Assembly (NCBI GenBank): GCA_018402585.1
Contig: JAGYIO010000003.1
Coordinates: 140,386-204,385 of the forward strand
DNA: 64,000 nt
Source of the DNA: Chthoniobacterales bacterium
GTDB taxonomy: Bacteria > Verrucomicrobiota > Verrucomicrobiia > Chthoniobacterales > JACTMZ01
Direction: 5' to 3'
The notes under the pieces were generated by a model that saw nothing but the letters and a program-made list of their open reading frames with translations, was not told the DNA's origin and did not search any database. The translations under genes and the position numbers were made by a program. Position 1 is the stretch's first letter. The number at the start of each line of letters is the position of its first letter. Below are positions 1-43,303 of the stretch, piece by piece.

Positions 1-2360
1 TCAACTGCCTGGCCAGCGCCACCTTCCCTCCCGGCTATCAGGATCTCCTCAATTACCTCGGCGGCTCCAATCCCAATCTGAGTGCCGGAGCGGCTCGCAA
101 CACCCTGACCCAACTGGCTGAAAGTGTCCGCCTGGCCAACACCGAACCCCGCACTGAAGTCCTGCGCGCCATCTTTACCCAACCGGGCAACCGCGACACC
201 GCCCCTTTTGGATCCGTGCCGACCATCCCGGGAACGATCTATGCCTCCGACTACGATCAGGGCATGAATGGCCACGCCTACGCGGATGCCGGGTGGGAAA
301 ACGTGCTTTACACCACGGGTGATTACACGGCTTGGAACGAGCGCTGGACCTACCGCAACGGCGGGGTGGACATCGAAACCTGCTCGGACCCTGACTCCAA
401 TGGCTACAACGTCTGTTTTTTCAAACCGAACGAGTGGATGAAATACACCGTCGAGGTCGCTTCCCCCGGGACCTACCGCATCGACCTGCGCGTGGCCAAT
501 GGCTCCGGGCAAACCGCCACCCTCGAGATCCAAAGCGGTGACGGAACCAAAACCTTGGCTACCGCCTCGGTGCGCCCTCGAGGTTGGTCGGACTGGGTGA
601 CGGTTTCCGTCAACGGCGGCTTTTCCACCGCCGGCCGCCAGTCGGTCCGCATCGCCAACACGGGCGCGTCCGACTGCAACATCAACTCCCTGCGCTTCAC
701 CAAGACCAGCGACACCGTGGCAGGGACCACTTCGGTCCCGGTGACCGTGACCACCGTTTCCCTCAAAGCGAACAACGGCGGATACCTCACGTGGAAAAGC
801 TCAAGTCCCCACGTTCTGACCTGCGAGGCCACCTCGGAGACGGACAACACGCGGTTCACCTTGGTCGACGCGGGGGACGGACGCACCGCGTTGCTCGCCG
901 GCAATGGCCAATACGTCCGCTACTCGGCCTCCGACAACAAGCTTTATGCCGATGCGACCAGCCTGGGGGCAGACGAGCAATTCACCCTGAACCGGCTCAA
1001 CCGGTCGGTCGCCATCCAGGCGCCCAACTCTCTCTTTGTCTCGCAAAATGCCAATGACCCTGTCCTCTGCGTCAAAAGTGTCCTCGCGGGCTGGGAATAT
1101 TTTCTCATGACCTCCCCTGTCACGACCCGAGGCGCTCCCGCACTCCCCTTGGGCGTCAGCATGAACAACGGGACGATCAGCTGGAGAACCATGCTCGGAG
1201 CCACCCACTACTCCGTGCAACGCCGCACCTCCTCAAGTGACTCGTTCCAAACCATTGCGACTGATCTTACCGGCACCTCCTTCATCGACCCCTCCCCCGC
1301 GAACGGAGCGACGAACACCTATCGCGTTTTGTCCCATGCCGGGACTTATGACAGTCCTCCTTCCGCCGAGGTCGGTTTCCTCGCCGCCGCCCTCCCCGCA
1401 GATTGGCGCGGGCAGGATGTCGGAAGCGTGGGCATTCCGGGCAGCGCCACCTTTCTCGATGGCACCTTCACCCTAAAAGGATCGGGTGCGGATATTTGGG
1501 AGACGGCCGATGGATGCCATTTTATCTCCCAGAGCTTGAGCGGCGATTTTGTCATCACCGCCCGTCTGGCCAGCATGGCCAACACGGACTACTGGGCCAA
1601 AGCCGGACTGATGGTCCGCGAGTCTCATGCCCCGGGCTCCCGGAATGTCTCCCTGCTCGTCACCCCGCAGGGTGGAGGCACCCGCCTGCAGTGGCGCACT
1701 TCCCCGGGCGGCCGCACCTCCGATCAGCAACTCAGCAGAAGCAACGCGCCTTTGTGGCTGCGCATCGTGCGCAGCGGCAACACCTTCACCGGCTGGCAGT
1801 CGGACGATGGACTGACTTGGACCAATACCCATGCGGTGACCCTCGGCCTGACCTCCGCGGTTTTGCTTGGACTGACCGTGACCTCGCACCAGAACAATGC
1901 GCTCAACCCGGCGGTGTTCGACCAGGTCAACGTGACCAGCCTGCCGCCCGGAACTTCCAGTTGGAGCTCCTTTCAAAACCTATGGTTCGCCGCCGGAGAG
2001 CCCAACAGCGCGCCCGAAGCCGATGCCAACAAGGATGACCTGCCCAATCTTCTGGCCTACAGCGCGGGGTTGAGTCCATGGATCCGGGCCACGCCCGACA
2101 ACGGCGGGTCCCCCTTCTTCGGGATCCACGATGGCTTCCTGGCCATGACCTACACCCGCTTGCGCCACCGTTTCGATTTCGACTGCGTGGTCGAGGTCTC
2201 CGGCGACCTCGTCACTTGGAATTCCGGTCCGGGCTTCACCGCGGAAAGCGGAATCGTGCCGCTCGATGACATCCGGGAACAAGTCACGGTGCGCGATGCC
2301 ATGCCGGCTGGCGGCTCCACTCAGCGCTTCATTCGCCTGCGGGGCATCTACCCGCGATGA
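1..2360 (+). CDS. Secreted carbohydrate-binding multidomain protein, 5'-partial (CBM6/35-like, beta-trefoil/fascin-like, FN3-like and DUF1349/LamG-like domains, plus a C-terminal tail module ending FIRLRGIYPR)
   Basis: The track ORF 216..2360 starts at a GTG. Hand translation of the same frame from nt 3 to 215 has no stop (NCLASATFPPGYQDLLNYLGG...), so the gene enters from upstream and the first full codon is at nt 3. Motifs seen: IYASDYDQG...EWMKYTVEV (CBM6-like) and FTLKGSGADIWETADGCHFISQSLSGDFVITARL...AKAGLMVRES (DUF1349/LamG-like). Confidence 0.8.
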   Translation, partial: NCLASATFPPGYQDLLNYLGGSNPNLSAGAARNTLTQLAESVRLANTEPRTEVLRAIFTQPGNRDTAPFGSVPTIPGTIYASDYDQGMNGHAYADAGWENVLYTTGDYTAWNERWTYRNGGVDIETCSDPDSNGYNVCFFKPNEWMKYTVEVASPGTYRIDLRVANGSGQTATLEIQSGDGTKTLATASVRPRGWSDWVTVSVNGGFSTAGRQSVRIANTGASDCNINSLRFTKTSDTVAGTTSVPVTVTTVSLKANNGGYLTWKSSSPHVLTCEATSETDNTRFTLVDAGDGRTALLAGNGQYVRYSASDNKLYADATSLGADEQFTLNRLNRSVAIQAPNSLFVSQNANDPVLCVKSVLAGWEYFLMTSPVTTRGAPALPLGVSMNNGTISWRTMLGATHYSVQRRTSSSDSFQTIATDLTGTSFIDPSPANGATNTYRVLSHAGTYDSPPSAEVGFLAAALPADWRGQDVGSVGIPGSATFLDGTFTLKGSGADIWETADGCHFISQSLSGDFVITARLASMANTDYWAKAGLMVRESHAPGSRNVSLLVTPQGGGTRLQWRTSPGGRTSDQQLSRSNAPLWLRIVRSGNTFTGWQSDDGLTWTNTHAVTLGLTSAVLLGLTVTSHQNNALNPAVFDQVNVTSLPPGTSSWSSFQNLWFAAGEPNSAPEADANKDDLPNLLAYSAGLSPWIRATPDNGGSPFFGIHDGFLAMTYTRLRHRFDFDCVVEVSGDLVTWNSGPGFTAESGIVPLDDIREQVTVRDAMPAGGSTQRFIRLRGIYPR

Positions 2361-3121: not shown

Positions 3122-4000
3122 ATGGAAGACCAACCGAAAACAGTCGTCATCACCGGGGCCAGCAGCGGATTCGGCGAGGGCGCGGTCAAATGTTTCGCGG
3201 ACCAAGGCTATCGTGTCTGGGGCACGATGCGGGACACCGCAGGGCGCAACGCCGCGAAGAAAGCCGCGCTGGAAGCCCATTCTCCCGGTATTTCCATCCT
3301 CGAGATGGATGTGGCCCACGACGACTCCGTGGCCGCAGGTTTTGCCCGGATTCTGGCCGCCGGCCCCGTCGACATCCTGATCAACAACGCGGGCATCATG
3401 TATCTCGGCCTCACCGAAGCGTTCAGCGTGGCCCAGGCCCACGAGCAGATGAACACGAACTACTATGGCGTCATCCGCACCACGCAGGCCGTTCTTCCCG
3501 CCATGCGCAAAGCGGGCCGTGGGTTGATCATCAACTGCAGTTCTCTTGTCGGCCGCATCTCGCCGCCTTTTTTCGGGACCTACACCGCGACCAAGCACGC
3601 TTTGGAGGGCTACTCGCAAGCCTTGCGTTACGAGGTGGCCAAGTTCGGGATCGATGTCGCCATCGTCCAGCCGGGCCCTTTCGGTACCGGGCTTCTCGGA
3701 TCCGGCAAGCCTCCCGCCCACAGCGAGGTGCTTGCCTCCTACGGCGAACTCGCCGGCGTCCCGGCCGCCATGGGTGCCAACTTTGCCCAAATGCTGCAGA
3801 GCGAAGGTGCTCCGGACCCGCAATGGGTGGTCGATGCCTATTTGAAGCTGGCGGAAATGCCCGATGGCGAGCGCCCCGTGCGGACGGTTGTCGGGATCGC
3901 CTGGGGCGTCGACGAAATGAACCGCCTGACTCAGCCCATCCAGGACAAGATTCTCCACGAAATGCAACTGAACGGCGTTTTGGGCGGGGTCTCGACCTGA
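3122..4000 (+). CDS. Short-chain dehydrogenase/reductase (classical SDR) family oxidoreductase
   Basis: It has the TGASSGFG cofactor motif near the N-terminus, NNAG, and the YTATKHALEGY catalytic Y-x3-K. Confidence 0.85.
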   Translation: MEDQPKTVVITGASSGFGEGAVKCFADQGYRVWGTMRDTAGRNAAKKAALEAHSPGISILEMDVAHDDSVAAGFARILAAGPVDILINNAGIMYLGLTEAFSVAQAHEQMNTNYYGVIRTTQAVLPAMRKAGRGLIINCSSLVGRISPPFFGTYTATKHALEGYSQALRYEVAKFGIDVAIVQPGPFGTGLLGSGKPPAHSEVLASYGELAGVPAAMGANFAQMLQSEGAPDPQWVVDAYLKLAEMPDGERPVRTVVGIAWGVDEMNRLTQPIQDKILHEMQLNGVLGGVST

Positions 4001-4032
4001 GGACGGCCGAGGTCAAGCCCCACTACAGACCC

Positions 4033-4259
4033 CTTAGCCGTAACCATGCAAAACATTCTGCCACTTCTGGCACGGCCACAGAGGCGCGTCTGGGCGAGAG
4101 TTGACTAACTATTTGGTGAGCGAGTTGGCACGTGGCCAAGGGGGCACGGGCGTCCCGCCCGTCACGACCCGACAACACGGCCGGGACGGCCGTGCCCCCT
4201 GGACAGACCGAGCCAAGCCGCGCTTTTATTGCGTCTTCAACTGCATGGTTACGGCTTAG
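4033..4259 (+). mobile_element. 227-bp MITE-like non-coding element, copy 1
   Basis: Terminal inverted repeats are CCGTAACCATGCA (4038-4050) and TGCATGGTTACGG (4242-4254). CTTAG flanks the element on both sides. A ~23-bp GC hairpin lies inside. Copies of the same length sit at 26144-26370 and 42185-42411. Confidence 0.6.
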
Positions 4260-4344
4260 TCCCTGAACCCGCGCGTTGGCGGGTGTGTGCTGGGAGTATC
4301 CGGGTTTGCGAAGGCTATGAACTTTGGCAGGCCAGAGGTCAGAA

Positions 4345-4562
4345 GGCCACAGCCGAGTCTGAGAGACGGCCCATAGGCAAATGGAAGAGGATGACAGAAG
4401 ATGGTGTTCGCGCCGCTGACACGGCGCAAACACAGTCTCCGGACCGAAGCTTTGAGCGGGGCGCGTGTCAGCGCGCCCCGCTCTGTCCTCTGCTATCTTC
4501 TTCCATTTGACCGCTTCGCTCAGCTCTCCGAGCTGCCTGTCTCGTTGCCCTCGGCTGTGGCC
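4345..4562 (+). repeat. Long composite hairpin element X, related to 10009-10111
   Basis: The outer stem is GGCCACAGCCGAG (4345-4357) with CTCGGCTGTGGCC (4550-4562). The purine arm 4378-4400 pairs with the pyrimidine arm 4487-4509. The inner hairpins are 4404-4433 (loop CTGACA) and 4454-4483 (12-bp perfect stem, loop TGTCAG). Confidence 0.6.
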
Positions 4563-4666
4563 TGTTCTTCTTCGTTTTCAACAGAGTAACTCCCGCAAGT
4601 TAGTCGGGAGTCCCTGAACCCGCGCATTGGCGGGCGTGGTTGGGGAGTAACTGGGGCGGCAAAGCC

Positions 4667-4802
4667 CAGGGGGAACGGGCGTCTCGCCCGTTTTCCGAAA
4701 GACCACCCGGGCGGGACGCCCGCAACCCAAATCATTGGGGTGTGGCATCGGCATCCTGCCGATGGGTTTGGATCGTGACGGGCGGGACGCCCGTGCCCCC
4801 TG
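4667..4802. repeat. Inverted pair of the GGGG(C/A)ACGGGCGTC(C/T)CGCCCGT motif enclosing a CATCGGCATCCTGCCGATG hairpin
   Basis: 4667-4691 (cagggggaacgggcgtctcgcccgt) and 4778-4802 (acgggcgggacgcccgtgccccctg) are near reverse complements. The hairpin CATCGGC-atcct-GCCGATG lies at 4746-4764. The same two modules recur at 49126-49223. Confidence 0.6.
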
Positions 4803-5005
4803 TCCAAAGCAGTAATTGGCGGGTCCGCCATAACCCAAGTTACTCGGGAGCCAATGGCGCGTCGCTAACCACGGGTCTGGAGATCGGCAAAATGGGGGGT
4901 CTCAGCCTCGAAAGGGACCTGTGAGTTTAAGGTTGGGAAGTTGAAAACCGACGACTGTTCAGATCGGCCACTCCACCCTCACGACTTTCCACCACGATTT
5001 CCAAC

Positions 5006-5446
5006 TTAGCGCGCTGCGAAAGCCGCCGGCGCGTCTTGACCGGCACACGGGTCGTCGGCCAGCCACCGCCGGATTTCTTCGAGGGTTTTGTCCCCGCAAT
5101 TGCGTCCGCCTTTGAGCAACTCGAGCACACCGGCTTCGATTGCTGCGGCGCGTGACCGGATGCCGTGGCGGCCGAGGGCATTGACCGCCCGCGGCGAGAG
5201 ACCGGCCAATTCGACCGAACCGCGCAAGGTTTTCAAGACGCGGCGGTGGCGCGAGAGCATGAGCGAGATGGCCTGAGGCGTGACCTGGAATTGCTCGGAA
5301 ATCTCGCGGAAGGTGTAGCCAAGGCCGCGCAGGGTGGCGATATCGCGGACTCGTTGCGGCAGTTTCTCAAGGGTTGCCGCGGCCGGCGGATCGGTCGGGG
5401 TGCTGACCGAACAGTTGTATAGGGTCACGATGTCACTCATAGCCAA
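5006..5446 (-). CDS. Small DNA-binding protein with a sigma-70 region-4-like HTH and an RNA polymerase alpha-CTD-like helix-hairpin-helix
   Basis: LPQRVRDIATLRGLGYTFREISEQFQVTPQAISLMLSRHRRVL resembles sigma region 4. LAGLSPRAVNALGRHGIRSRAAAIEAGVLELLKGGRNCGDKTLEEIRRWL follows the alpha-CTD pattern (L-S-x-R-x-x-N-x-L...N-x-G-x-K-[ST]-L-x-E-I). The start overlaps the GH3 stop by 14 nt. Confidence 0.6.
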   Translation of the reverse strand: MAMSDIVTLYNCSVSTPTDPPAAATLEKLPQRVRDIATLRGLGYTFREISEQFQVTPQAISLMLSRHRRVLKTLRGSVELAGLSPRAVNALGRHGIRSRAAAIEAGVLELLKGGRNCGDKTLEEIRRWLADDPCAGQDAPAAFAAR

Positions 5447-7557: not shown

Positions 7558-9849
7558 ATGAAGCTCAAAACCAAAACCCCCAAGTTACGTCGCGCCCGCC
7601 TCGGAACTTCCCTCGTCACCGCGGCCCTCGCAGCGATCAGCCTTTCGGCCGCCAGTGCCCAAGACAATTCCTGGACCGGCGGCACGAGCACGGATTGGAA
7701 CACCCCGGGAAATTGGAGTCTCGGAAATGTACCAAGCGGGCAGAACGCCATTGTGGACAACGCGTCGGGAAACATCGCAACCATCTCCGCGGATATTGCC
7801 GCCACGCCCAATGATATCGTCGTGCGCGGGGGAGGCCGCCTCGATCATCTTGCCGGAACCGCCGGCACAGGCGGAGGCAGTTGGATGTTTGTCGGCCAGA
7901 ACGGCACGGCGGGCACCTACAATTTGGCGGACACCGCCACGGCCGCTGCCGGCCTGACCGGTTTTGCCCAGGGAACCGGTTCACTCAACGCCACGGGGAA
8001 TCTAAACGTAGGTGCTGCTGGTGACAATCGGACCGGAACCGTGCGGGTCAACACGGCGGGAACGCTTGCCGTCTCCGGCGAATTCTTCATCGGTGACTCG
8101 CTCAACAGCACGGGCACTTTCAGCCTCGAAAACGGCAGCATGACGGTGAACAACAAGATCTATGTCGGCAACAACCGGGGCACCGGGACGCTGACCATGT
8201 CCGGCGGCACGCTGACCAAGACCGGCGGCGACCAAACTTTTGTCGGCCGCGACAGCGGCACCGGGACCCTCACCCAGAGTGGCGGGACCATCACGCTGAA
8301 CCATGATTTCTACGTGGGACAAGGCGGCGGTGGCAACGGCACTCTCAATCTTAGCGGCAACTCGGTGCTCAACACCGGGCGTGATTTTGTCATCGGCCGC
8401 GAGAGTGGCACGGGCACGCTCAACATGACCGGCGGCACGATCACCAAGACCGGGGATGAGAAGATGATCGTCGGCCACAACAATGGCACAGGCACCGTGG
8501 TGCAGAGCGGCGGAACGATCAACGTGAATCAAAACCAGTTGTATATCGGCAACGAAAATGCCGGGGCTCAGGGAACCTATACCCTCAGCGGGACCGGAGC
8601 GCTCAACGTGGCGGACGAATTGGTCGTCGGCCGCGAGAGCGGCACAGGTATCTTGAACGTCAACGGCGGCACGATCACCACCTCGGGCAACGGCAACATG
8701 TATATCGGGCGCCGTAACGGCACAGGCACCCTCAACCAGACGGACGGGGTAATCAGCGTGATTTACGAATTCGGCGTGGGTACGCGCGATGACAACAAGA
8801 TTGGCACCGGCACCTACAATCTGAGTGGAGGCACCTTGTCGGCGGGTCGTAACATCTTCATCGGCAAAGAACTCGGATCGTCCGGAACGATGGTCATGAC
8901 CGGCGGGGCGATGAGCACGAGCGACAAGTTGCAGATCGGGCACAACCAAGCGACGGGCGTTCTCACCCAGAGCGGCGGCACGGTGAACGTGCAAAACGAA
9001 GTCTTCATCGGCAATGAAAACAATGCCTCATCGGTGGGAACCTACACCCTGAGCGGGACCGGCGTCCTCAACGTGGGCAACGAGGTCATTGTCGGCCGCG
9101 ACAACGGCACGGGAACCTTCAACCTCGACGGAGGCACGGTCAACGCCACCAAGATTTCCGGCGGCAACGGCAGCGCGACGGTGAACTTCAACGGCGGCGT
9201 GCTCAAAGCCAAACGGGACGAGGCCAACCTGATCGAAAACCTGGACACCGCCAACGTCGAAAACGGCGGGATCAAGATCGACAGCAACGGGTTTGCTGTT
9301 GCCACCAGCCAGGCTCTGACCGGCACGGGCGGCTTGGAGAAGCTGGGCGCGGGCAGCCTGACCCTCAACGCAGCCAGCACTTACACCGGGCCGACGCTGG
9401 TCAGTGCCGGCACCTTGACCTTGGCCCTCAACAGCAGCATCACCAGCGCGGTCACTGTGGCCGACGGCGCCGCCCTCGGCGGAGCGGGCGCCATTGCCGG
9501 CGACCTCTCCTTCAACTCCGGCGCCAAGTTTGCCTTTAGTCTCACCCAGACACTTCTCGCCAACGGCGCCACGGTGAGCTTTGCCGACTTCGGCATTGAC
9601 GATCTTGTCGGATTGTCCAGTGCGACCACGGTCGGTCTTTACAACCTCATCGGCGGCACCGCTATCATCAACACGAACGGACTGAGTAATCTGGGTGCCG
9701 CCAACGCCGCCGATCTCGGCGATGGAAAGTCCGCCTACTTCACCGAAGGTAGTTTGCAAGTCAACGTCGTTCCGGAACCCAGCACCTACGCTTTACTCGT
9801 CCTCGCCGGTCTGGGGCTGGCCGGCCACGTCATCCGCCGGCGGCGCTAA
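7558..9849 (+). CDS. Autotransporter-associated beta-strand-repeat surface protein with a C-terminal PEP-CTERM anchor
   Basis: It has a signal peptide and the NSWTGGTSTDWNTPGNWS motif. It carries about 20 repeats of the G-T-G-T-L-x-x-S-G-G-T-I type and GGLEKLGAGSLTLNAASTYTGPTLVSAGTLTL. The C-terminus is VPEPSTYALLVLAGLGLAGHVIRRRR. Confidence 0.9.
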   Translation: MKLKTKTPKLRRARLGTSLVTAALAAISLSAASAQDNSWTGGTSTDWNTPGNWSLGNVPSGQNAIVDNASGNIATISADIAATPNDIVVRGGGRLDHLAGTAGTGGGSWMFVGQNGTAGTYNLADTATAAAGLTGFAQGTGSLNATGNLNVGAAGDNRTGTVRVNTAGTLAVSGEFFIGDSLNSTGTFSLENGSMTVNNKIYVGNNRGTGTLTMSGGTLTKTGGDQTFVGRDSGTGTLTQSGGTITLNHDFYVGQGGGGNGTLNLSGNSVLNTGRDFVIGRESGTGTLNMTGGTITKTGDEKMIVGHNNGTGTVVQSGGTINVNQNQLYIGNENAGAQGTYTLSGTGALNVADELVVGRESGTGILNVNGGTITTSGNGNMYIGRRNGTGTLNQTDGVISVIYEFGVGTRDDNKIGTGTYNLSGGTLSAGRNIFIGKELGSSGTMVMTGGAMSTSDKLQIGHNQATGVLTQSGGTVNVQNEVFIGNENNASSVGTYTLSGTGVLNVGNEVIVGRDNGTGTFNLDGGTVNATKISGGNGSATVNFNGGVLKAKRDEANLIENLDTANVENGGIKIDSNGFAVATSQALTGTGGLEKLGAGSLTLNAASTYTGPTLVSAGTLTLALNSSITSAVTVADGAALGGAGAIAGDLSFNSGAKFAFSLTQTLLANGATVSFADFGIDDLVGLSSATTVGLYNLIGGTAIINTNGLSNLGAANAADLGDGKSAYFTEGSLQVNVVPEPSTYALLVLAGLGLAGHVIRRRR

Positions 9850-11726: not shown

Positions 11727-14700
11727 ATGAAATCCACCCCCACCCCCCCTATCACCGGAAACTTCCTTCGGGCTACACCCGTTGTCGCCGCCCTTCTCCT
11801 CGGCTTGAGCGCCCCGCTCGGTCACGCCGTCGACAACTTTTGGAGCGGAGCCGTGAGCTCGGATTGGAATGACGGGGCCAACTGGTCGGAAGGCGGGGTG
11901 CCCGATACTCTATTTGACGACAACGCCGTTGTGGCCACAACCACCCCCAACATCGCAACGATCACCGCGGATATTTCCGCGACCCCCAATGACATCATCG
12001 TGAATGGGGGCGGTCGCATCGACCATCTGGCCGGCGTGGCCGGAACCTTCGGGGGTGCCTGGATGAAGGTGGAAGACGGCGTCTACAACCTGGCCGACAC
12101 GTCGATCCCAGAAGTTGGTATCACCGGCTACGCACAAGGCACGGGTTCGCTCGACGCCACGGGAAATCTCCTTGTGGCCGCCTTCGGCGACAATCGGGAG
12201 GGCACGATCAACGTCAACACCGACGGGACCCTCACCGTTTCCAGCGAGCTGTTTGTCGGCGACTCCACGGGCAGTCAAGGCGCCCTCAACCTCGAAGCGG
12301 GCACCATGACGTTGAACAACACGAGCTACATCGGCAACAACCGGGGCACCGGCACGGTAACCATGACCGGCGGCACGATAATCAAAACGGGTGGGGGGCA
12401 GCTTCTCGTCGGGCAAAACAATGGTATTGGCCGCGTGTTGCACAGCGGCGGCACCATAAGCGCGAACAACGAAGCGTACATCGGCAATGCCAATGCCGGT
12501 TCGGGAAGCTACACGCTGAACGGGACCGGATCGCTTAGCATTTCCAACGAGCTCGTCGTGGGGCGCGAACTCGGCACGGGCGTTCTGAACGTCGACGGCG
12601 GTACGATTACGACCGAGGGCAATGGCAACATGTATGTCGGCCGCCGCAACGGCGTGGGAACACTCAACCAAACGGCCGGCACGCTCAACGTGAACCGCGA
12701 GTTCGGCGTGGGAACACGCGACGGCGACCAGGGCGGCATCGGTGCCTACAATCTGAGCGGAGGCGCGCTGGCGGCGACCAACAACATCTTTGTCGGCAAG
12801 GACGAATCCTCCTCGGTCAACGCCACCTCCTTGGTTCGTGGCGTGGCCTACGTCATCACGACGCCGGGCGATACAATTTGGACCGCATTCGGCGCAGCCG
12901 ATAACAACGTGGGAACGGTCTTCACCGCCTCGGCCAGCGGAACCGCGGACAGCGGCACCGGTGTCGCGGTCAAGGTCACCGATGTGTCCGGCAAGTCGTC
13001 CGGCACCATGACGATGACCGGCGGAACCGTGACGGGCAGCGACAAGCTGATCATCGGGGAGAATGGCGCGACAGGCTTCCTTGCGCAAAGCGCCGGCACC
13101 ATGAATGTGCAGAACGAAATCTATGTTGGCAACGGTCTTCCGCCCGCCCAAGGAACAAGGATTCTTTCCAATGCTAATGACGGACAACTCGAGAAGCGTT
13201 CCGAGTGGTCACCTGAAACCGTCATCATTCAAAATATCGACAACTGGAATGTGAGCATCGGCGAATGGTATGGATCCGGCCTGACGACCGCCGTCATCCC
13301 TTTCCAGTTGCCCGACTTCGGCGCGGTGGCTGATCCGTTCACCAGCGCCACCTTCGGGGTGAATCTTTACAACAAAGGAGATGCCACGGTCACCGACCTC
13401 GACCTCTACGCAGTGAGGGTCAGCCCTGCCCCCCAGATTGCCACAACCGACTGGTACAACGGTTCCGCCCCCGACCCGAACGCCACGCTGATCCAAGCGA
13501 GCTTCCTCACCCCCGCCAGCACGACGACGAGCGCAGGTCCCGAGAGTGGGCCCAACAACCTGACGGATGACGCGGGAAGCGCGGCACTCCTCGCCTACCT
13601 CAATGCCGCCTACGACAGCGGGAACGGGGCCGGACAGTTCGTTTTTCTCCGGGTGAGCTACGCCTCGGACACCTTCCCCTCAGGTTGGGATGCTTACAAT
13701 TTTACAACCCGCAACGCCGCTCTCGAGGGCGATGCTCCGGTGATCAGCTTTACTTCTTCCGTCGCAGCGATCCCGCCCGACGCCACCTACACGGTCAGCG
13801 GTTCGGCGGTGGTCAACGTGGGCAACGAAATCATCGTGGGCCGCGAAAACGGCACCGGCACCCTCAATCTTGACGGCGGCACGGTCAACGCGACCAAGAT
13901 CTCGGGTGGCACCGGCAACGCCACGCTGAACTTCAACGGTGGCGTCCTCACCGCGAAACGGGACGAGAGCAACCTGATCGAAAACTTGGATGTGGCCAAT
14001 CTGGCGGGTGGCGGACTCAAAATCGACAGCAACGGGTTCAACGTGACCACCAGCCAGTTCTTCACGGGTACAGGCGGCTTGGAGAAATCGGGTGCAGGCC
14101 AGCTCACCTTGCGCGCACCCAGCACCTACGCAGGCACTACAACGGTGACGGCCGGCGTTCTCCGGGTCGAAAAAACCGGACTTAATGCCATTGTCGACGC
14201 CACCGCCGACACTTTGGTCGCCGAGTTCGCGGCCCCGACGGCTCCCGGGGCTTACCGCATCTTGCCCGGGCCTCTGGCCGGGTCCCAGACCTTCACCGCC
14301 ACCGGTTTGGGCTCGCTCCAGCAGGCGACTTTCGACGCACAGACCAGCACCGTGACGGTCACGGGAGAGCCGGACGGCGACCCTTACGTGGCCTGGATCG
14401 AGAGCTTCACTCCGAATCCCCTGCTCCCGGATGACGCCTCCAAATTACCCACCGCCGACCCGGATGGCGACGGCATCGCCAATCTGATGGAATACGTGCT
14501 GGCCGGCGGCAACCCGGTCGTGCCGTCTCTCTCCATTCTCCCGACCGTGGCCAGCGTGGGTGACGATCTGGTGCTGAGCTACACCCGCAATGACGAATCG
14601 GAAGCGGACACCACCCAAGTGGGCCAGTGGACCACAGACCTGACCGTCTGGAATGACGTCGTGCCTGTGGTGGTCAACGAAAACGGGGCTTTGGCGGATG

Positions 14701-14777
14701 ATATGACAGTCACCGTGCCCAAGAGCAATGCGGTCAACGGAAAACTGTTTCTCCGCTTGAAGGTGACCATGCCGTAA
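11727..14777 (+). CDS. Autotransporter-associated beta-strand-repeat surface protein, paralog of 7558..9849, with insert domains and a non-PEP-CTERM C-terminal module
   Basis: The N-terminal ~430 aa and the [30 protein letters not shown] region are collinear with the 7558 protein. Extra segments lie at ~12796-13000 and ~13159-13785. The C-terminus is [21 protein letters not shown]...[12 protein letters not shown]. Confidence 0.9.
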
Positions 14778-23676: not shown

Positions 23677-26148
23677 ATGTCCGCCCCCAAGCTCACTCCC
23701 ATGATGCGCCAATACCAGGACATCCGCCGCGAGCTTCCCCCCAACACCCTCCTCTTCTTCCGCCTCGGGGACTTTTACGAAATGTTTTTCGACGACGCCC
23801 GCGAAGCGTCTGCCCTCCTCAATGTCGCCCTGACCAAACGCGGCGACACCCCCATGTGCGGCGTCCCCTACCACAGCGCCCGCGCCTACGTGGCCAAACT
23901 GGTCGAAGCCGGCAAACGCGTCGCGATCTGCGACCAAGTCGGCGAAGTCACTCCCGGCCAACTCGTCCGTCGCCAAATCGCCCGCATCCTCAGTGCCGGC
24001 ACGCTCGACGACTTCGGCCTCGAGGAAAACCGCCACAACTACCTCGCCGCGGTCTGCCCGGAGAAAAAATCCTCCGGCCTCGCCTGGCTCGATCTCAGCA
24101 CCGGCGAATTCCGCCTCGCCGAAATCGAATCGCCCGCCCAACTCGCCGACCAACTCGCCCGCCTCCAACCAAGCGAACTCCTCATCCCCGACCACCTCGA
24201 GACCACCCCCGACCTCCCGCTGCCCCCCACCCCGCACGACGCCTTCGCCTTCGACCTGACCCAGGCCACCGACCTCCTCTGCGACCACTTCCGCGTGCAA
24301 TCCCTCGACGGCCTGGGCTGCACCGATCTCCCGCACGGCACCCGTGCCGCCGGCGCCCTCCTCCATTACATCACCCGCAGCCTCCGCCGCGACGCACAAC
24401 ACCTCGCGCCCCCGAAACCCTGGCACGCCACATCCTACCTCCTCCTCGACGCCGTCACCCAAACCAACCTCGAACTCGTCGAATCCCGCAGCCCCGAAGG
24501 CACCAGCCTTCGCGGCGCCATCGACCGCACCCTCACTCCGATGGGCGCCCGCCTGCTCCGCGAATGGATCCTCCACCCGCTCCGCGATCTCGCCGCCATC
24601 ACCCACCGCCAAGACCTCGTCGCCGCTTTCCATGATGACCCCACCCGCCTCGCCGCGATACGCGACATCCTCCGCGACATCCGCGACATGGAACGCGCCG
24701 TCTCCCGCCTCAGCCTCGCCTCCGGCAACGCCCGCGATCTCGTCGCGCTGAAAACCTCCCTTGCCCTCCTCCCGTCCCTCCGCGCCACCCTCGCCGAAAA
24801 CGACACCTCCCCGCTCCTCGCCCTCGCCGCCGACCTCCGCACCTTCGACCCGCTCGTCGTCCTCCTCGAATCCGCCGTGGTCGACGAACCCCCGCCGACC
24901 CTCCGCGACGGCGGCATGATCCGCGAGGGCTACAACCCCGACCTCGACGAACTCCGCCGCGCCGGCACCGAAGGACGCCGCTGGATCGCCGAACTGCAAG
25001 ACCGCGAAATCGCCCGCACCGGCATCAAGTCGCTCAAAATCCGCTACAACTCCGTCTTCGGCTACTACCTCGAAGTGACCAAATCCAATCTCGCCTCCGT
25101 CCCCCACGACTACACCCGCAAACAAACCACCGCCAACTCGGAGCGCTTCATCACCCAGGAGCTGAAAGAAATGGAAGGCCGCATCCTCGGCGGCGAAGAA
25201 CGCGCCCGCGCCCTCGAGTCGGAAATCTTCGGCCAACTCCGCACCGCCGTCCTCGCCGAATTGGCCTCGCTCCAACACACCGCCCGCGCCGTGGCCCAGA
25301 TCGACACCCTTGCCGGACTCGCCGAAACCGCCCGCACCTTCCGCTACATCCGCCCGAAACTCACCGCCACCGGCGCGATCAAAATCACCGACGGACGCCA
25401 CCCCGTCCTCGACCAAACCATGCCCGCCGGGCGCTTCGTGCCCAACGACACCGCGCTCGACACCGACGCCCCCCGCCTCGTCATCCTCACCGGCCCCAAC
25501 ATGGCCGGCAAAAGCACCTACATCCGCCAGGTCGCCCTCCTCGTCCTCCTCGCCCAGACCGGCAGTTTCATTCCCGCGGCCGAAGCCGAGATCGGACTGG
25601 TCGACCGCATCTTCACCCGCGTCGGCGCGAGCGACGACCTGGCGCGCGGACAATCCACCTTCATGGTCGAGATGAACGAAACCGCCGCCATCCTCAACAA
25701 CGCCACCGACCGCAGCCTCGTCATCCTCGACGAAATCGGCCGCGGCACCTCCACCTTCGACGGCCTCTCCATCGCCTGGAGCGTGGCCGAGCACCTCCAC
25801 GACGTCACCGCCTGCCGCACCCTTTTCGCCACGCATTACCACGAACTCACCGACCTGGCCCGCACCCGCCGCGGCGTGACCAACTGCAACATCGCGGTCC
25901 GCGAATGGAACGACGACATCATCTTCCTCCGCAAAATCATCCCCGGCCCCGCCGACCAAAGCTACGGCATCCAAGTTGCCCGCCTCGCCGGCCTGCCCGA
26001 ACCGATCCTCAAACGCGCCCGCGAAATCCTGACCAACCTGGAAAACTCCGAACTCACCGCCGAAGGCAAACCGGCGCTAGCCGAAAAACGCCCCCGCGCC
26101 CACAAACTCCGCGCCTTCACCGACCAACTCGACCTCTTCGAGTCCTAG
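23677..26148 (+). CDS. mutS: DNA mismatch repair protein MutS
   Basis: Motifs present: TPMMRQYQDIRRELPPNTLLFFRLGDFYEMFFDDA, GPNMAGKSTY Walker A, and DEIGRGTSTFDG. The stop TAG (26146-26148) lies inside the terminal CCTAG of the MITE-like element. Confidence 0.97.
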   Translation: MSAPKLTPMMRQYQDIRRELPPNTLLFFRLGDFYEMFFDDAREASALLNVALTKRGDTPMCGVPYHSARAYVAKLVEAGKRVAICDQVGEVTPGQLVRRQIARILSAGTLDDFGLEENRHNYLAAVCPEKKSSGLAWLDLSTGEFRLAEIESPAQLADQLARLQPSELLIPDHLETTPDLPLPPTPHDAFAFDLTQATDLLCDHFRVQSLDGLGCTDLPHGTRAAGALLHYITRSLRRDAQHLAPPKPWHATSYLLLDAVTQTNLELVESRSPEGTSLRGAIDRTLTPMGARLLREWILHPLRDLAAITHRQDLVAAFHDDPTRLAAIRDILRDIRDMERAVSRLSLASGNARDLVALKTSLALLPSLRATLAENDTSPLLALAADLRTFDPLVVLLESAVVDEPPPTLRDGGMIREGYNPDLDELRRAGTEGRRWIAELQDREIARTGIKSLKIRYNSVFGYYLEVTKSNLASVPHDYTRKQTTANSERFITQELKEMEGRILGGEERARALESEIFGQLRTAVLAELASLQHTARAVAQIDTLAGLAETARTFRYIRPKLTATGAIKITDGRHPVLDQTMPAGRFVPNDTALDTDAPRLVILTGPNMAGKSTYIRQVALLVLLAQTGSFIPAAEAEIGLVDRIFTRVGASDDLARGQSTFMVEMNETAAILNNATDRSLVILDEIGRGTSTFDGLSIAWSVAEHLHDVTACRTLFATHYHELTDLARTRRGVTNCNIAVREWNDDIIFLRKIIPGPADQSYGIQVARLAGLPEPILKRAREILTNLENSELTAEGKPALAEKRPRAHKLRAFTDQLDLFES

Positions 26149-26370
26149 CCGTAACAATGCAAAACAATCTGCCTTTTCCGGCGCTGCCACAGAGGCGCGC
26201 CTGGGCGAGAGTTGACTAACTGTTTGGCGAGCGAGTTGGTACGTAGCCAAGGGGCACGGGCGTCCCGCCCGTCACGATCAGACAGCACGGCCGGGGACGG
26301 CCGTGCCCCCTGGAAAAACCGAGCCAAGCCGCGCTTTTATTGCGTCTCCGACTGCATGGATACGGCTTAG
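26144..26370 (+). mobile_element. 227-bp MITE-like element, copy 2 (the most diverged copy)
   Basis: The TIRs are CCGTAACAATGCA (26149-26161) and TGCATGGATACGG (26353-26365). The flanks are CCTAG and CTTAG. The core GGGGCACGGGCGTCCCGCCCGTCACG...CCGTGCCCCC is conserved. Confidence 0.6.
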
Positions 26371-26384
26371 CGTCTTAAACATCT

Positions 26385-26448
26385 GTAGCGGCGCCGTCCC
26401 CGGCGCCGGCCGTTAACCTAAGCTTGTAGCGGCGGTCTACGACCGCCG
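26385..26448. repeat. Two tandem TGTAGCGGCG-type hairpins (REP-like)
   Basis: The first is tgtag-CGGCGCCG-tccc-CGGCGCCG at 26385-26408. The second is tgtag-CGGCGGTC-tac-GACCGCCG at 26426-26448. Related GTAGCG/GTAGGG-led hairpins lie at 21941, 29734 and 54608. Confidence 0.6.
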
Positions 26449-26452
26449 GAAC

Positions 26453-26836
26453 CTATCCCTCCAACCCAGAGCAAAACTCCCGAAAAGCCCTCTCCTCTTC
26501 CGCCGTCGCTACCCCCGCCACAATGTGCCCCGCGAGACTCCTCACAACCAGTTTCCGCGCCGCCGGCAAGTCCAACTGATTGATCACGTCACGGATGATC
26601 GCCGCAAAAGTGTTTCCATTGTAAAAACAGAAAGCAGCGCCGCGATGACAACGCCTGCACAATTCGACAGCTTCATTGAGCGTTGTCTCTTGAAGGTAAT
26701 GACTCTCCCAGAGCTGCCGCGTGACTTCGTGCCCGTCCGATGTCGGCTTATGCAGAGCACTCTTTGCCGAGCATAGCATCGCATTTTGCGCGGTCACAAA
26801 CTCCCAAGAGTAGTCGCGCAGCCACACCCGCTTCAT
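26453..26836 (-). CDS. Hypothetical protein (127 aa), second gene of a low-GC orphan pair
   Basis: It is the only long ORF here, and no family was recognised. Its start lies 3 nt after the stop of the 62-aa ORF. A hand count gives ~48% G+C for 26581-26700, against visibly GC-richer flanks. Confidence 0.55.
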   Translation of the reverse strand: MKRVWLRDYSWEFVTAQNAMLCSAKSALHKPTSDGHEVTRQLWESHYLQETTLNEAVELCRRCHRGAAFCFYNGNTFAAIIRDVINQLDLPAARKLVVRSLAGHIVAGVATAEEERAFREFCSGLEG

Positions 26837-28990: not shown

Positions 28991-29730
28991 GCACCCCTCT
29001 TCGCCTCTGCATCCACGGCGCCCAAGGCCGCATGGGCCAAGCCCTCATCCGCTGCGCGGCCGAAGATCCGGAACTTGAAGTGACCGCCACGGTCGACACG
29101 GACGATAATTTCTCCGCCGCGCTCACGGAGTGCGATGCGGTGATCGACTTCTCCGCCATCCAGATCACCAGTCAGGTGGCCAAAGCCTGCGCCGAGGCCG
29201 GCAAAGTCCTCGTCATCGGCACGACCGGACACGAACTCGCCGAGCGTGAGCTGATCAAGCAAGCCGCAGCCAAGATCCCGCTCGTCTTTTCCCCGAACTA
29301 CAGCGTCGGCGTGAACACCCTTTTCTGGCTCACCCGCAAAGCCGCCGAAATCCTTGGCTCCGACTTCGACCTTGAAGTGGTCGAAATGCATCACCGCCTG
29401 AAAAAAGATGCCCCCTCCGGCACCGCCCGCCACCTCGCCGAGATCCTCGCCGAAGTCCGCCAACTCGACTACGCCGAGTCCGCCCGCCACGGCCGCGCCG
29501 GCCTGGTCGGCGAACGCGCGAACGACGAAATCGGCGTCCACGCCATCCGCGGCGGCGACGTGGTCGGAGACCACACCGTGATCTACGCCGCCCCCGGCGA
29601 ACGCCTCGAACTCACCCACAAAGCCTCCAGCCGCGACACCTTCGCCCGCGGCGCCCTCCGCGCGGCCAAGTGGGCCAGCAAGCAACCGGCCGGTCTTTAT
29701 GACATGCAGGATGTGCTCGGCCTCAAGTAA
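28987..29730 (+). CDS. dapB: 4-hydroxy-tetrahydrodipicolinate reductase
   Basis: Motifs present: GAQGRMGQAL, VIGTTG, FSPNYSVGVN, EMHHRLKKDAPSGTA and IRGGDVVGDHTV. ATGA overlap with dapA. Confidence 0.93.
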   Translation: MSTPLRLCIHGAQGRMGQALIRCAAEDPELEVTATVDTDDNFSAALTECDAVIDFSAIQITSQVAKACAEAGKVLVIGTTGHELAERELIKQAAAKIPLVFSPNYSVGVNTLFWLTRKAAEILGSDFDLEVVEMHHRLKKDAPSGTARHLAEILAEVRQLDYAESARHGRAGLVGERANDEIGVHAIRGGDVVGDHTVIYAAPGERLELTHKASSRDTFARGALRAAKWASKQPAGLYDMQDVLGLK

Positions 29731-29751
29731 CCCGTAGCGTCGCCTTCCCCA

Positions 29752-29923
29752 GCGACAACCACTTCAGATCAGACTTGGTGGATCGCGATGTCCCACTCGC
29801 GATTTTCTTCACTTCACCTCGCGCCGGGGACGGCGCGATCCACCTTCCGCAACTACTCCTCCCGAACTTCCAAGCGCAGGAACTTCTGCGCTTCTCCCGG
29901 CAAGACCGGCACTGTCGCGCGGC
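29752..29923. repeat. ~171-bp direct repeat, copy A, containing a relic protein C-terminus
   Basis: It aligns by eye at roughly 80% with 31132-31302. The minus strand of 29853-29918 encodes ATVPVLPGEAQKFLRLEVREE*. The S8 protease C-terminus is ATAPVLPGERQKFLRLEVGEN*. Confidence 0.7.
29782..29810 (+). terminator. Candidate intrinsic terminator downstream of dapB
   Basis: ATCGCGA-tgtcccac-TCGCGAT is followed by TTTTCTTC. The same hairpin with a T-run occurs in repeat copy B at 31163-31188. Confidence 0.4.
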
Positions 29924-30926: not shown

Positions 30927-31131
30927 AACAGTTTGCTAACTCCCCGTATAACCCCTTATCAAGGCCCGAATACGCCCCTGCGGCGGGAGTGCCTTTCCCC
31001 TTCCCTGCCTCTCCGCGCAGCAGACCTGCCCTCGGGCACCACCCCCGTAATCTCCGGGCCCCCCGGCGGCTCGCCTCGAACGCCCCGACAAAGCATCGAG
31101 CCGCGACACCTCCGCGCAAGACACCCTCCTC

Positions 31132-31302
31132 GGCAACAACCGTTTCAGATCAGACCTGATGGATCGCGATGTCCCGCTCGCGATTTTTCCACTTTACTCC
31201 CGCGGGGGACAGCATGATCCACCTTCAGCAACTAGTTTTCCCCAACTTCCAAACGCAGGAACTTTTGCCGCTCCCCAGGCAAGACCGGCGCAGTGGCGCG
31301 GC
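31132..31302. repeat. ~171-bp direct repeat, copy B (the 3' end of the S8 protease gene plus downstream sequence)
   Basis: See 29752-29923. This copy includes the last ~22 codons and the stop codon (31232-31234) of the 1872-aa gene. Confidence 0.7.
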
Positions 31303-41445: not shown

Positions 41446-41774
41446 GATGGGAAGTCTCGCCCCCGCCGCTCAGGCCAGCAAGCGAATGCAGGGGACAGCT
41501 CAAACTCTTCCCACACCGCCTGCACCGCCAGGGGAAACTCCCGACCAACGTCAGCACTCCCCGCATGCTGCGGGAGCAGATTCTCCAGTCGGCACCACTG
41601 CCCCCGCCGCGGGTCGACCAAGACCAGATCGGCATCCAGGGCCGTGGCAATAGACTCTTTCTCAGCCAAGACCCCAAAACGCGCCACCGCTTGCCGCGGC
41701 GTCAGGCGGGCGATTTCACGGGCTGAAAGTCCGACCGACCGCCAGACCGGCAAAAACTGCTCCGCCCTCCTCAT
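41223..41774 (-). CDS. Hypothetical protein with an unreliable 3' end
   Basis: The N-terminal ~105 aa look protein-like (MRRAEQFLPVWRSVGLSAREIARLTPRQAV...). The last 223 nt overlap the CHAD gene in another frame and translate as R/C/S-rich junk. The start forms an ATGA overlap with the upstream ORF. Confidence 0.3.
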   Translation of the reverse strand: MRRAEQFLPVWRSVGLSAREIARLTPRQAVARFGVLAEKESIATALDADLVLVDPRRGQWCRLENLLPQHAGSADVGREFPLAVQAVWEEFELSPAFACWPERRGRDFPSCFLPPASWPRARLCGRRCGSCCARRVGRWESFRTIRRSRRIFSAPASSVCSRSVVWFRAGRHGGRCFCLRAGT

Positions 41775-42208
41775 CCCGCCCCAACATCGAAAAAATCCCC
41801 GCCTCTCCGCTGCCCCGGCGGACCAGATTCATGGTCCGTGCCGAGCGTGTCGACGGACTCGACCCGCACCCACCGCACCATTTCCACCCAGGTCGCCTCG
41901 CCGCGCAACGGCGGCGCACACTCGGCCGTTGCCCGGATGCGCACCGCGTCATTTCGGTTGAAGACCACATAACGCGGGCAGATTTCCGCCGAGACATCGG
42001 CCCCACCTTCGCTCAAACCGGCAATTTCACTCCACTCTTCGGCACGGTTCACAGGCACCACCTGCAGACGACACCGGGTCTCGCCCGCCAACCCGCAGCG
42101 CCGCATGATTTCAGGAGCGGAAAAGGAACCCGCAAACGGCGCGGAGGGCCCGGAGAAATTTTTCTGAAGCACCAACTTTATGGTCTTAGCCGTAACCAGG
42201 CAAAACAT
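41771..42208 (-). CDS. Hypothetical protein with an uncertain start
   Basis: It is a 145-aa ORF. The first 8 codons lie inside the MITE-like element (42185-42411). Alternative starts are GTG 42172, TTG 42175 and ATG 42106. No family was recognised. Confidence 0.4.
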   Translation of the reverse strand: MFCLVTAKTIKLVLQKNFSGPSAPFAGSFSAPEIMRRCGLAGETRCRLQVVPVNRAEEWSEIAGLSEGGADVSAEICPRYVVFNRNDAVRIRATAECAPPLRGEATWVEMVRWVRVESVDTLGTDHESGPPGQRRGGDFFDVGAG

Positions 42209-42411
42209 TCTGCCATTTCTGGCACGGCCACAGAGTCGCGTCTGGGCGAGAGTTGACTAACTATTTGGTGAGCGAGGTGGCACGTCGCCAAGGGGGCACG
42301 GGCGTCCCGCCCGTCACGACCCGACAACACGGCCGGGACGGCCGTGCCCCCTGGACAAACCGAACCAAGCCGCGCTTTTATTGCGTCTTCAATTGCATGG
42401 TTACGGCTTAG
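42185..42411 (+). mobile_element. 227-bp MITE-like element, copy 3
   Basis: The TIRs are CCGTAACCAGGCA (42190-42202) and TGCATGGTTACGG (42394-42406). CTTAG lies on both flanks. A hand alignment finds 8 mismatches against copy 1. Confidence 0.6.
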
Positions 42412-42485
42412 CGGTGGGGACAGCTTGGTCCAGCCGTCCCGACCAATCCTTTTCGCCAATATTCCCGCTCTTAAACCTCAGCGAC

Positions 42486-42812
42486 TCAGCTCCCCCGGTA
42501 AGTCGCATAACTCCAAGGCGTGCAAAGCAGCGGCACATGATACCCCTGCGCCACATCGCTGATCCGGAACCGCACCGGCACCACATCAAGGAATTTGCTC
42601 TCCCCAAAATACGCGCCGAGATGAAAACTCAACTCATACTCCCCTTCGCGCATCTCCTCCGGGCCGAGCATCAACTCGTCCGTGCGCCCGTCGGCATTGG
42701 TCGCCAACGTCTTGACCAGCTCGTGGCCCGGCACCCGCCGCAACTCGATTTTCATTCCGGCAGCCGGACGCCCCCGCATCGTGTCCAGAACGTGTGTGCT
42801 TAGTTTGCCCAT
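42486..42812 (-). CDS. uraH: 5-hydroxyisourate hydrolase (transthyretin-like)
   Basis: It is 108 aa, begins MGKLSTHVLDTMRGRPAAGM, and ends with the family signature YRGS. Confidence 0.93.
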   Translation of the reverse strand: MGKLSTHVLDTMRGRPAAGMKIELRRVPGHELVKTLATNADGRTDELMLGPEEMREGEYELSFHLGAYFGESKFLDVVPVRFRISDVAQGYHVPLLCTPWSYATYRGS

Positions 42813-43303
42813 AAGATATCATGCAGCCGCAGCGCGGCGATTTTGTGGATCTCGGCCAACGCGGCTTTTTTCTCCGACGCCGCGTCATTCTGCAAGCGCT
42901 GCGGGAAGGCCTCCAGAATTGTCTCCTTTCTGTTCATCCGCGCACAAATGATGAGGGGAAAGCCGAACTTCTCGCGGTAAGCCGCATTGTGACGACGAAA
43001 GGCGTCGACTTCGTCCGCCGAGAGATCGGTCAATCCCGCCGACGCCTGCTCGCCCTGCGACTCGGCCGTGAGCACCGCGCGCCCGACCAGATCGGGGTGC
43101 GCCTCGATCAGTGCGATTTTTTCCTCCTCGGGCGCATGGTTCACTTCCTGCTGCAGCGCATGACGCAAGTGGTCGACGTCCGCGAACGGACGCTTCCCCG
43201 CCGCGCGACGCGCAAAATGCGGCGAGTGTTCATAGACCGGACCAAGGGCCGCCACGAACTCCTCTTCCGTCCCGGCGTTCAGCTTTGCCAGTTTGGGACT
43301 CAT
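42800..43303 (-). CDS. uraD: 2-oxo-4-hydroxy-4-carboxy-5-ureidoimidazoline (OHCU) decarboxylase
   Basis: FVAALGPVYEHSPHFA and IEAHPDLVGRA...SQGEQASAGL are typical of the family. It overlaps uraH by 13 nt. Confidence 0.88.
   Translation of the reverse strand: MSPKLAKLNAGTEEEFVAALGPVYEHSPHFARRAAGKRPFADVDHLRHALQQEVNHAPEEEKIALIEAHPDLVGRAVLTAESQGEQASAGLTDLSADEVDAFRRHNAAYREKFGFPLIICARMNRKETILEAFPQRLQNDAASEKKAALAEIHKIAALRLHDILWAN

Follow-up and report, generated by a model that had tools for sequence, protein, structure and literature searches.

The stretch analysed here (the window, 64,000 nt of contig JAGYIO010000003.1 from a Chthoniobacterales bacterium, assembly GCA_018402585.1) carries three copies of a 227-bp segment, which an earlier sequence-only reading took for a MITE (miniature inverted-repeat transposable element), with a mobile structured RNA as the alternative. 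Copy 1 begins 33 nt past the stop codon of an SDR gene (3122-4000, plus strand) and stands at the start of a 1-kb gene-free nest of repeats (4001-5007). Copy 2 begins within the stop codon of mutS, the TAG of which is made up of the last two bases of the left flanking triplet and the first G of the element. These two contexts are as the sequence-only reading gave them, whereas copy 3, which had been placed inside a ureide operon, lies beyond the cluster, 75 nt downstream of its last gene. This gene, for HIU hydrolase (42486-42812, minus strand), comes after genes for OHCU decarboxylase and an M20 amidohydrolase, and copy 3 is antisense to all of them; it falls within a 1.55-kb stretch (41485-43035) that the closest metagenome-assembled genome (MAG) is without. 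Relatives 97-98% identical to the MutS encoded beside copy 2 are found in lake metagenomes and in MAG JBIKLF01, which is named 'Chthoniobacterales bacterium' and comes from Lake Mendota, and remoter MutS matches are named Terrimicrobiaceae.

A repeat search returns the three segments as a single 227-nt family at exactly the positions first given, all on the plus strand (Table 1). Between copies 1 and 3 there are 8 mismatches without a gap, and copy 2 is, as had been noted, more diverged, with 21 mismatches to copy 1 and one compensating pair of indels (two gap columns). BLAST E-values among the copies inside the window range from 1e-84 to 1e-117 and so exclude chance similarity. When the three copies are aligned with their 20-nt flanks using MAFFT the mean column identity is 91%, and C(T/C)TAG to the left and CTTAG to the right mark exactly where the similarity ends. 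The ends of the element read as originally described; the element proper is 219 bp, GCCGTAAC...GTTACGGC. Terminal inverted repeats (TIRs) are indeed present, although they are 14 bp and not 13 bp in length, or 15 bp when the adjoining A/T is included. All 14 positions match in copy 1, which is the sole perfect copy in the window, and 13 of 14 match in copy 3.

The short direct repeat CTTAG that brackets the TIRs had been suggested to be a target-site duplication. The duplication stands, but the repeated unit is not the 5-bp sequence: the element occupies a C-TNA-G target of which TNA is duplicated, giving the flank pattern C-TNA-[GCCG...CGGC]-TNA-G with N being T, A, G or C. Across 17 elements from the window, the related MAG and metagenomes, N is identical on both sides in 14 (binomial probability about 8e-6, with the chance of a match set at 0.29). 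Because N varies among insertions yet matches on both sides, the flanking triplet is a true target-site duplication. The triplets are TTA/TTA in copies 1 and 3 and at loci L004 and L018, TAA/TAA at L015 and L032, TGA/TGA at L001, L011 and L017, and TCA/TCA at L008 and L033. The middle base is the same and the first base unlike in copy 2 (CTA/TTA), L013 (TTA/CTA) and the second element of L032 (AAA/TAA), and the middle base itself is unlike in L012, L014 and the composite element of L002. In the 14 elements that are intact at both ends, C stands on the left in 12 and G on the right in 13; both outer bases are part of the target, since the empty site (below) has them too.

Since the first base of the element is G and its last base C, insertion would re-create CTNAG at both junctions, and the regeneration of the target by each insertion would explain abutting and nested copies. 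At L005 (4860-4900) the right end of an element of type B (see below) abuts an inverted type-A-like end over one common TGA, as expected if a second element had entered the CTNAG regenerated at the junction of the first. A target that holds TAA or TGA, or forms TAG, would also be rare within genes, and insertions would fall at or just past stop codons. At L012 and L017 the triplet at the left end is TGA and may be the stop codon of the upstream gene. Over the whole window the CTNAG pentamer is rarer than expected, with 75 occurrences where dinucleotide-preserving shuffles have 124 +/- 8.7, and several of the CTTAG sites in the window are MITE junctions.

A search for empty sites had been put forward as a check on mobility, and one was found for copy 2. 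The position at the mutS stop codon is empty, with boundaries exact to the base, in four independent sets of contigs (L020/L021/L022, L025, L026 and L027), the mutS genes of which are 95.7-96.7% identical to that of the window at the nucleotide level and 97-98% at the amino acid level. The empty site reads GAGTCCTAG joined to CGTCGTAAACATCTGTAGCGG (a reading that starts CG), which is the two flanks of the window joined without a break. In a longer reading the relatives have ...CTCTTCGAGTCCTAG followed directly by CGTCGTAAACATCTGTAGCGGCGCC..., and the window has ...GAGTCCTA, the element (GCCGTAAC...GGATACGGCTTA) and then GCGTCTTAAACATCTGTAGCGGCGCC.... The remoter relatives L023 (91% nucleotide identity) and L024 (88%) are likewise empty at this site. 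Judged from these alignments, copy 2 inserted after the split from the nearest sampled relatives, at about 4% nucleotide divergence. Yet the sequence of copy 2 departs by about 10% from that of copy 1, which requires that several sub-lineages of the element exist side by side. Two sites are comparable with the MAG whose MutS is 98% identical; the copy 2 site is empty and the copy 3 region absent, and no shared insertion was seen. A TIR-like GCCGTAAC beside the empty site in L020 was considered as a sign of insertion targeted to an inverted repeat, or as an excision footprint, and rejected: it is ordinary variation, because L025, L026 and L027 read CGTCGTAAAC or CGTAGTAAC there. We conclude that the mobile unit is bounded by the TIRs, that it inserts at C-TNA-G, that it has been recently active, and that flanking bases, N at the least if not all of TNA, are duplicated on insertion.

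Lake metagenomes and a related MAG, also of the Chthoniobacterales, hold further copies at unrelated loci. The scans, of one genome per species and of JGI/ENA metagenomes, used the internal 18-mer GGGCGAGAGTTGACTAAC and detect only elements with the left module; they matched four contigs of MAG JBIKLF01 (and one chance match) and 14 metagenomic loci. Full-length elements of the same kind as copy 1 (type A), 92-98% identical to it by BLAST, are present at L004 in MAG JBIKLF01, L015 (=L007) and L013, and the L004 element, at another locus in another strain, is 97.8% identical to copy 1. At L001, L002 (two elements), L005, L006, L008, L011, L012, L014, L016, L017 and L018 only the first ~90 nt, the left module, is in common, at 84-90% identity. 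The type B elements among these are about 220-240 bp long (219 bp from one TIR end to the other where the ends can be placed) and have the left end of type A, an unlike centre of other GC hairpins and a right end of ...GTTTTGAATTTTCACGGC; as an inverted repeat their ends match at 14 of 18 positions, with similarity extending 18 bp, to ...AAAAC. One of the loci sharing the left module carries a mosaic element, type C. Conversely, the right half of type A is joined to another left half at L032 (about 4170-4410, beside one complete type A copy), in P0130 and in P0131, and thus halves have been shuffled in both directions among related elements. In total the family comprises the three window copies, at least five more type A loci and at least ten related type B or C elements. 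The impression that the left module is specially conserved was set aside as partly ascertainment, since the 18-mer used for scanning came from it. That the module might be a transposase-recruitment platform or a functional RNA, and not a matter of plain shared ancestry, we think improbable.

Several observations on these loci are of separate interest. At L002 in MAG JBIKLF01 a Y1_Tnp gene (1583-1860, minus strand; IS200-like and possibly a REP-associated tyrosine transposase, RAYT) is interrupted after ...FQSRYQSILI by the type C element, and 600 bp off a second element (540-968) has a foreign insert of about 210 bp in its left module, between GTTGACT and TAACTG. The L025 contig stops 46 bp past the mutS stop codon, within a region of hairpin repeats (4852-4897), which suggests that such repeats break short-read assemblies and that copy numbers in MAGs are lower bounds.

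The element also leaves traces in protein databases. It had been stated that no frame is open across it; on the minus strand of copies 1 and 3, however, a frame runs open over all 227 bp (Table 1), and it is this frame that stops interrupt in copy 2. No conserved open reading frame (ORF) exists among the copies, and the frames of the element have no Pfam match. When the concatenated frames of copy 1 were used for a protein search, 11 ORFs came back, each an artefact overlying an element copy, and the minus-strand frame has no other database relatives than such spurious ORFs. Two of the 11 were placed at loci: P0124 corresponds to L033-L039, a single locus in seven of the thirteen contigs bearing it, where a type A element lies in the 3' end of a toxin-like gene, and P0131 corresponds to L032. 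These public gene calls (P0121-P0131, L032 3886-4602 and L033 2489-2890) run through MITE copies and constitute artefactual 'hypothetical proteins'. Some of them look fused to the ends of real genes, P0131 at its start overlapping the end of a glycoside-hydrolase-2 gene and P0124, which adjoins an Unstab_antitox antitoxin gene, opening with 58 non-element residues. An exact gene-product look-up gave no record for the window MutS, P0121 or P0122, and a cluster look-up gave no names.

The GC hairpin described at the centre of the element is real; the whole element has a predicted fold of -114.9 kcal/mol, with z = -6.7 against shuffles. The hairpin is composed of two inverted units that resemble repetitive extragenic palindromic (REP) sequences, each of which forms an inner hairpin of 7 bp without mismatch (ACGGGCG/CGCCCGT in one, ACGGCCG/CGGCCGT in the other). 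The long hairpin formed from arm to arm has two mismatches, exactly at the G/C positions that are swapped between the arms. The 27-mer that forms the first unit occurs five times without mismatch in the window, three times within the MITEs and twice solo (a degenerate copy lies at 4663-4696), and the solo units stand in mosaics with other hairpin types. This is the pattern of REP sequences, of their inverted doublets (REP doublets forming hairpins, REPINs) and of bacterial interspersed mosaic elements (BIMEs). We regard the doublet as a nested passenger of the MITE, because type B elements have other hairpins in its place and because the empty site reveals that the TIR-bounded unit moved.

Other hairpin repeats accompany these units. 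Within 49126-49232 a second hairpin type (GGCATCGGCTTCCAGCCGATG ... CATCGGCTGGAAGCCGATGCC), present as an inverted pair, comes after the 27-mer in a BIME-like organisation, and this second type is also present at 4744-4765 and downstream of mutS in L020. A third hairpin family (TGTAGCGGCGCCGTCCCCGGCGCCGGCCGTTA ... TTGTAGCGGCGG...) lies at 26384-26470, past the copy 2 insertion site; it is kept in relatives, with additional hairpin modules between its arms in L020, L026 and L027. The duplicated segments 29591-29923 and 31061-31302 (76-86% identity) contain the palindrome GGTGGATCGCGATGTCCCACTCGCGAT, which also adjoins MITE copies in L012 and L016 and may represent a fourth REP-like family.

The nature of the hairpin core raises the possibility that the element is a REP or REPIN sequence moved by a RAYT, an IS200-like Y1/HUH transposase, with the GC doublet as the active part and the remainder hitch-hiking. 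The paired and solo occurrence of the 27-mer speaks for such an origin, the inner hairpins stay perfect through the G/C swap, the 27-mer is invariant in all six aligned type A copies when 14% of columns vary overall, and the related MAG holds a fragment of a Y1_Tnp (PF01797) gene. However, single-strand transposition by HUH/RAYT enzymes is not known to yield TIRs or a target duplication, and the element has both. The bounds are the TIRs and TNA, and only the central 59 bp is REP-like; the empty site places the movement on the entire TIR-bounded unit and not on the hairpin core, and the same ends and TNA duplication recur around wholly different central hairpins, which refutes a RAYT origin for the 227-bp unit. 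We therefore consider this explanation very improbable. In our view it is equally improbable that the element is the gene of a structured non-coding RNA, or an RNA of cis-regulatory function (for example a terminator or attenuator), whether duplicated or mobile. Either strand is predicted to fold very stably (z about -6.5), several copies stand just past stop codons, and the ends of type B elements, a hairpin followed by GTTTTGAATTTT, are terminator-like. Yet any inverted-repeat DNA folds stably on two strands, and type A has no U-tract past its hairpin. A cmscan of the whole window against Rfam gave nothing at the gathering threshold, and a permissive scan of 3950-5000 returned just far-sub-threshold noise resembling the hairpins of miRNA precursors. 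RNAalifold on six distinct type A copies found compensatory change in none of 70 predicted pairs, 12 of which are broken by single substitutions (six in the TIR stem), and the covariation term was unfavourable (+1.78). In 15 left modules three small helices score no better than shuffles (95 of 500 reach the observed value), promoter prediction gives nothing sigma-70-like within copy 1 or near it, and the orientation to neighbouring genes is inconsistent, copy 3 being antisense to the upstream gene. The structured-RNA alternative of the sequence-only reading is thus without support, and its preferred one is borne out by the dispersed copies, the TNA duplication and the empty site.

We accordingly favour, with a probability of about 0.9, the interpretation of the three segments as copies of a non-autonomous DNA transposon, a MITE, of a freshwater Verrucomicrobiota (Chthoniobacterales) lineage. 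Several points weigh against it. Mobility is read from the comparison of sequences. For copies 1 and 3 no clean empty site was found, the available relatives differing there in gene content; at the locus of the SDR orthologue in L031 (86% nucleotide identity), for instance, a methyltransferase gene takes the place of the repeat nest 4001-5007. A fuzzy search for the TIRs in the window and about 356 kb of related loci found MITE ends alone and no autonomous insertion sequence (IS), and the 18-mer scans would miss a full-length IS sharing only the termini. The ends are decayed or the triplets mismatched in L012, L014, L013 and copy 2, and the sole verified empty site is CCTAG, which with a 3-bp duplication predicts CTA on both sides, yet in copy 2 the triplet is CTA to the left of the element and TTA to its right. 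This mismatch may be due to a later, synonymous substitution in the last Ser codon of mutS, at its third position, where different relatives have C, G or T. Alternatively the central base alone may be duplicated, in which case the element would be AGCC...GGCT with a 15-bp TIR. The failure to find a partner transposase and the decayed ends would also suit inert relics, that is, ancient insertions or segmental duplicates with their likeness kept by gene conversion. We give this a small probability, if a larger one than either of the explanations above, since copy 2 is absent from relatives that are just ~4% diverged, copies 1 and 3 differ at only 8 of 227 bases, copy 1 is almost identical to the element at L004, and no site is seen to be shared with the MAG of 98% MutS identity.

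How the MITE would be mobilised can be outlined. A DDE-type transposase encoded elsewhere in the genome would bind both TIRs and act in trans, making cuts in the target that are staggered by 3 nt around N before integrating the element. The centre, a nested pair of REP-like hairpin units, would be passenger material, and exchange of halves among related elements would give rise to the mosaic family. The full-length IS with the same termini that the sequence-only reading recommended seeking was not found. Two scans of IMG/VR for an autonomous IS gave chance matches in low-GC phage contigs or none, a regular-expression scan for IS5/DUF4096 motifs in six-frame translations of the loci gave none, and the concatenated-frame protein search returned no transposase. 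A peptide stitched from the left module was considered as an IS5 N-terminus (...RVD...LRT.G) and dropped, the resemblance being superficial and without a Pfam match. An IS110-family transposase (DEDD_Tnp_IS110 + Transposase_20) at L032 12934-13851, about 2.4 kb from the type A copy, was rejected as the partner: the IS110 family is not known to have TIRs or a TNA duplication, and this gene is therefore judged unrelated to the MITE.

The earlier suggestion of an IS5-like partner fits the TNA signature, although no partner IS was found. The IS1031 subgroup of the IS5 family prefers a TNA target, which it duplicates (PMC1676026, citing Mahillon and Chandler 1998). Its TIRs are short, as are those of the present element, which is without a transposase gene and is likened to this group by its target signature and not by its termini; it has the 3-bp TNA duplication of the IS1031 type, with the caveat that copy 2 has CTA/TTA against a CCTAG empty site. 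An identical signature, the interrupted palindrome CTNAG with its central TNA duplicated, is that of Tc4/Tc5 (bioRxiv 10.1101/2023.11.06.565293). Tc4 differs in being a eukaryotic element, of nematodes, arthropods and tardigrades, and no IS630-like transposase is present in the sequences covered here, although no search aimed at one was made. Bacterial members of IS630 duplicate TA, often in CTAG. By analogy of target, then, the candidate partners are an IS1031-group transposase of the IS5 family and a Tc4-like transposase of the IS630/Tc1/mariner group, and with the likeness confined to this signature we file the element under neither IS1031 nor Tc4. As a matter of judgement and not of measurement, we would give an IS5/IS1031-like enzyme slightly less than an even chance, hold an enzyme of another kind to be rather unlikely, and an IS630/Tc4-like one a little more so. 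That the partner belongs to a Tc4-like branch of bacterial IS630 so far unrecognised, or that this is an orphan family borrowing a distant enzyme, we think improbable.

Table 1. Features of the MITE copies and REP-like units in the window.
Feature	Coordinates	Strand	Remarks
MITE copy 1 (type A)	4033-4259	+	element proper 4037-4255, 219 bp
Copy 1 TTA duplications	4034-4036 and 4256-4258		target flanks C4033 and G4259
Left TIR	4037-4050	+	GCCGTAACCATGCA
Right TIR	4242-4255	+	TGCATGGTTACGGC; GGATACGGC in most copies elsewhere, making the repeat imperfect there
Left module, ~90 nt	4033-4122	+	84-90% identical to left part of ~220-240-bp type B/C elements
Central nested REP-like doublet	4141-4199	+	two inverted units
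REP-like unit 1	4141-4167		GGGGCACGGGCGTCCCGCCCGTCACGA (27-mer)
REP-like unit 2	4177-4199		inverted variant, ACGGCCGGGACGGCCGTGCCCCC
MITE copy 2	26144-26370	+	element proper 26148-26366
Copy 2 triplets	26145-26147 and 26367-26369		CTA (left) and TTA (right)
MITE copy 3	42185-42411	+	element proper 42189-42407; TTA duplicated on both sides
Solo 27-nt REP-like unit	4773-4799	-	outside any MITE
Solo 27-nt REP-like unit	49129-49155	+	adjoins second hairpin repeat type GGCATCGGCTTCCAGCCGATG
ORFs through copies 1 and 3	4023-4433 and 42178-42459	-

The remaining repeats of the nest downstream of the SDR gene include a 54-nt unit (4260-4313) that begins exactly at the right junction of copy 1, recurs at 4611-4664 (78%) and is also present at 327-367 of the MAG locus L005 (97.6%), as well as a long imperfect palindrome (4344-4563) that has perfect outer arms of 14 nt and inner arms of 46 nt, and REP doublets at 4663-4802. 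The methyltransferase gene at this position in L031 is of the RrnaAD type. Gene content also differs from that of the closest MAG (98% MutS identity) at 41485-43035 and 29.7-40.6 kb: in L020 4 bp separate the CHAD gene from the OHCU-decarboxylase gene, copy 3 being absent and no HIU hydrolase gene annotated in between, and its dapB is followed directly by CHAD, without the window block of a 1872-amino-acid S8-peptidase-like gene and malate synthase (29.7-40.6 kb) that L023 and L024 carry. Elsewhere in the window two plus-strand ORFs, 7558-9849 (763 amino acids) and 11727-14777 (1016 amino acids), contain internal repeats of ~228-234 bp and ~75-78 bp (GGCACGCTSAAC...GGCGGCACG...) and have 200-300-nt blocks in common that are 70-78% identical, which suggests that they encode paralogous repeat-rich surface proteins.

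Prokaryotic MITEs such as Correia/NEMIS of Neisseria, RUP of Streptococcus pneumoniae and Nezha of cyanobacteria have been reviewed (PMC10969869). Like these the present element is small (~220 bp) and non-coding, with TIRs, a short and variable duplication, strong hairpin potential, dispersed and mostly intergenic copies and presence/absence variation between strains, which are the hallmarks of a prokaryotic MITE. It differs in its target, which is C-TNA-G instead of TA, in its uncultured Verrucomicrobiota host, in the nested REP-like pair and shuffled halves, and in that no partner IS was found. To our knowledge its sequence is unrelated to the Correia/NEMIS, RUP and Nezha families. Tourist-like MITEs, which belong to PIF/Harbinger, the eukaryotic relatives of IS5, have a 3-bp T(A/T)A duplication and TIRs that start G/C-rich; they are eukaryotic and duplicate TWA alone, and in the present element N may be any base. 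REPINs and BIMEs share with the core the inverted short GC-rich palindromes, which also stand singly and in mosaics in the same intergenic regions, but the 219-bp unit has TIRs and a duplication, and its REP doublet is a passenger and not the boundary.

The family appears to be undescribed, while its kind, a selfish MITE, is ordinary, and the general understanding of transposons is unchanged by it. What our analysis adds is a documented and recently active MITE family in Chthoniobacterales, a group known almost solely from MAGs and the mobile elements of which are largely uncatalogued. The family is useful for annotation, as it accounts for spurious or chimeric gene calls, the 11 database 'proteins' being artefacts of the element and some of them apparently fused to real genes, and it marks differences between strains that lake time series make it possible to follow. 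Its self-regenerating C-TNA-G target, overlapping stop codons, provides an example of how the choice of target can steer insertions to gene ends. Should the Tc4-like or orphan interpretation prove true, the element would seed self-nesting clusters and would act as a carrier that spreads REP doublets.

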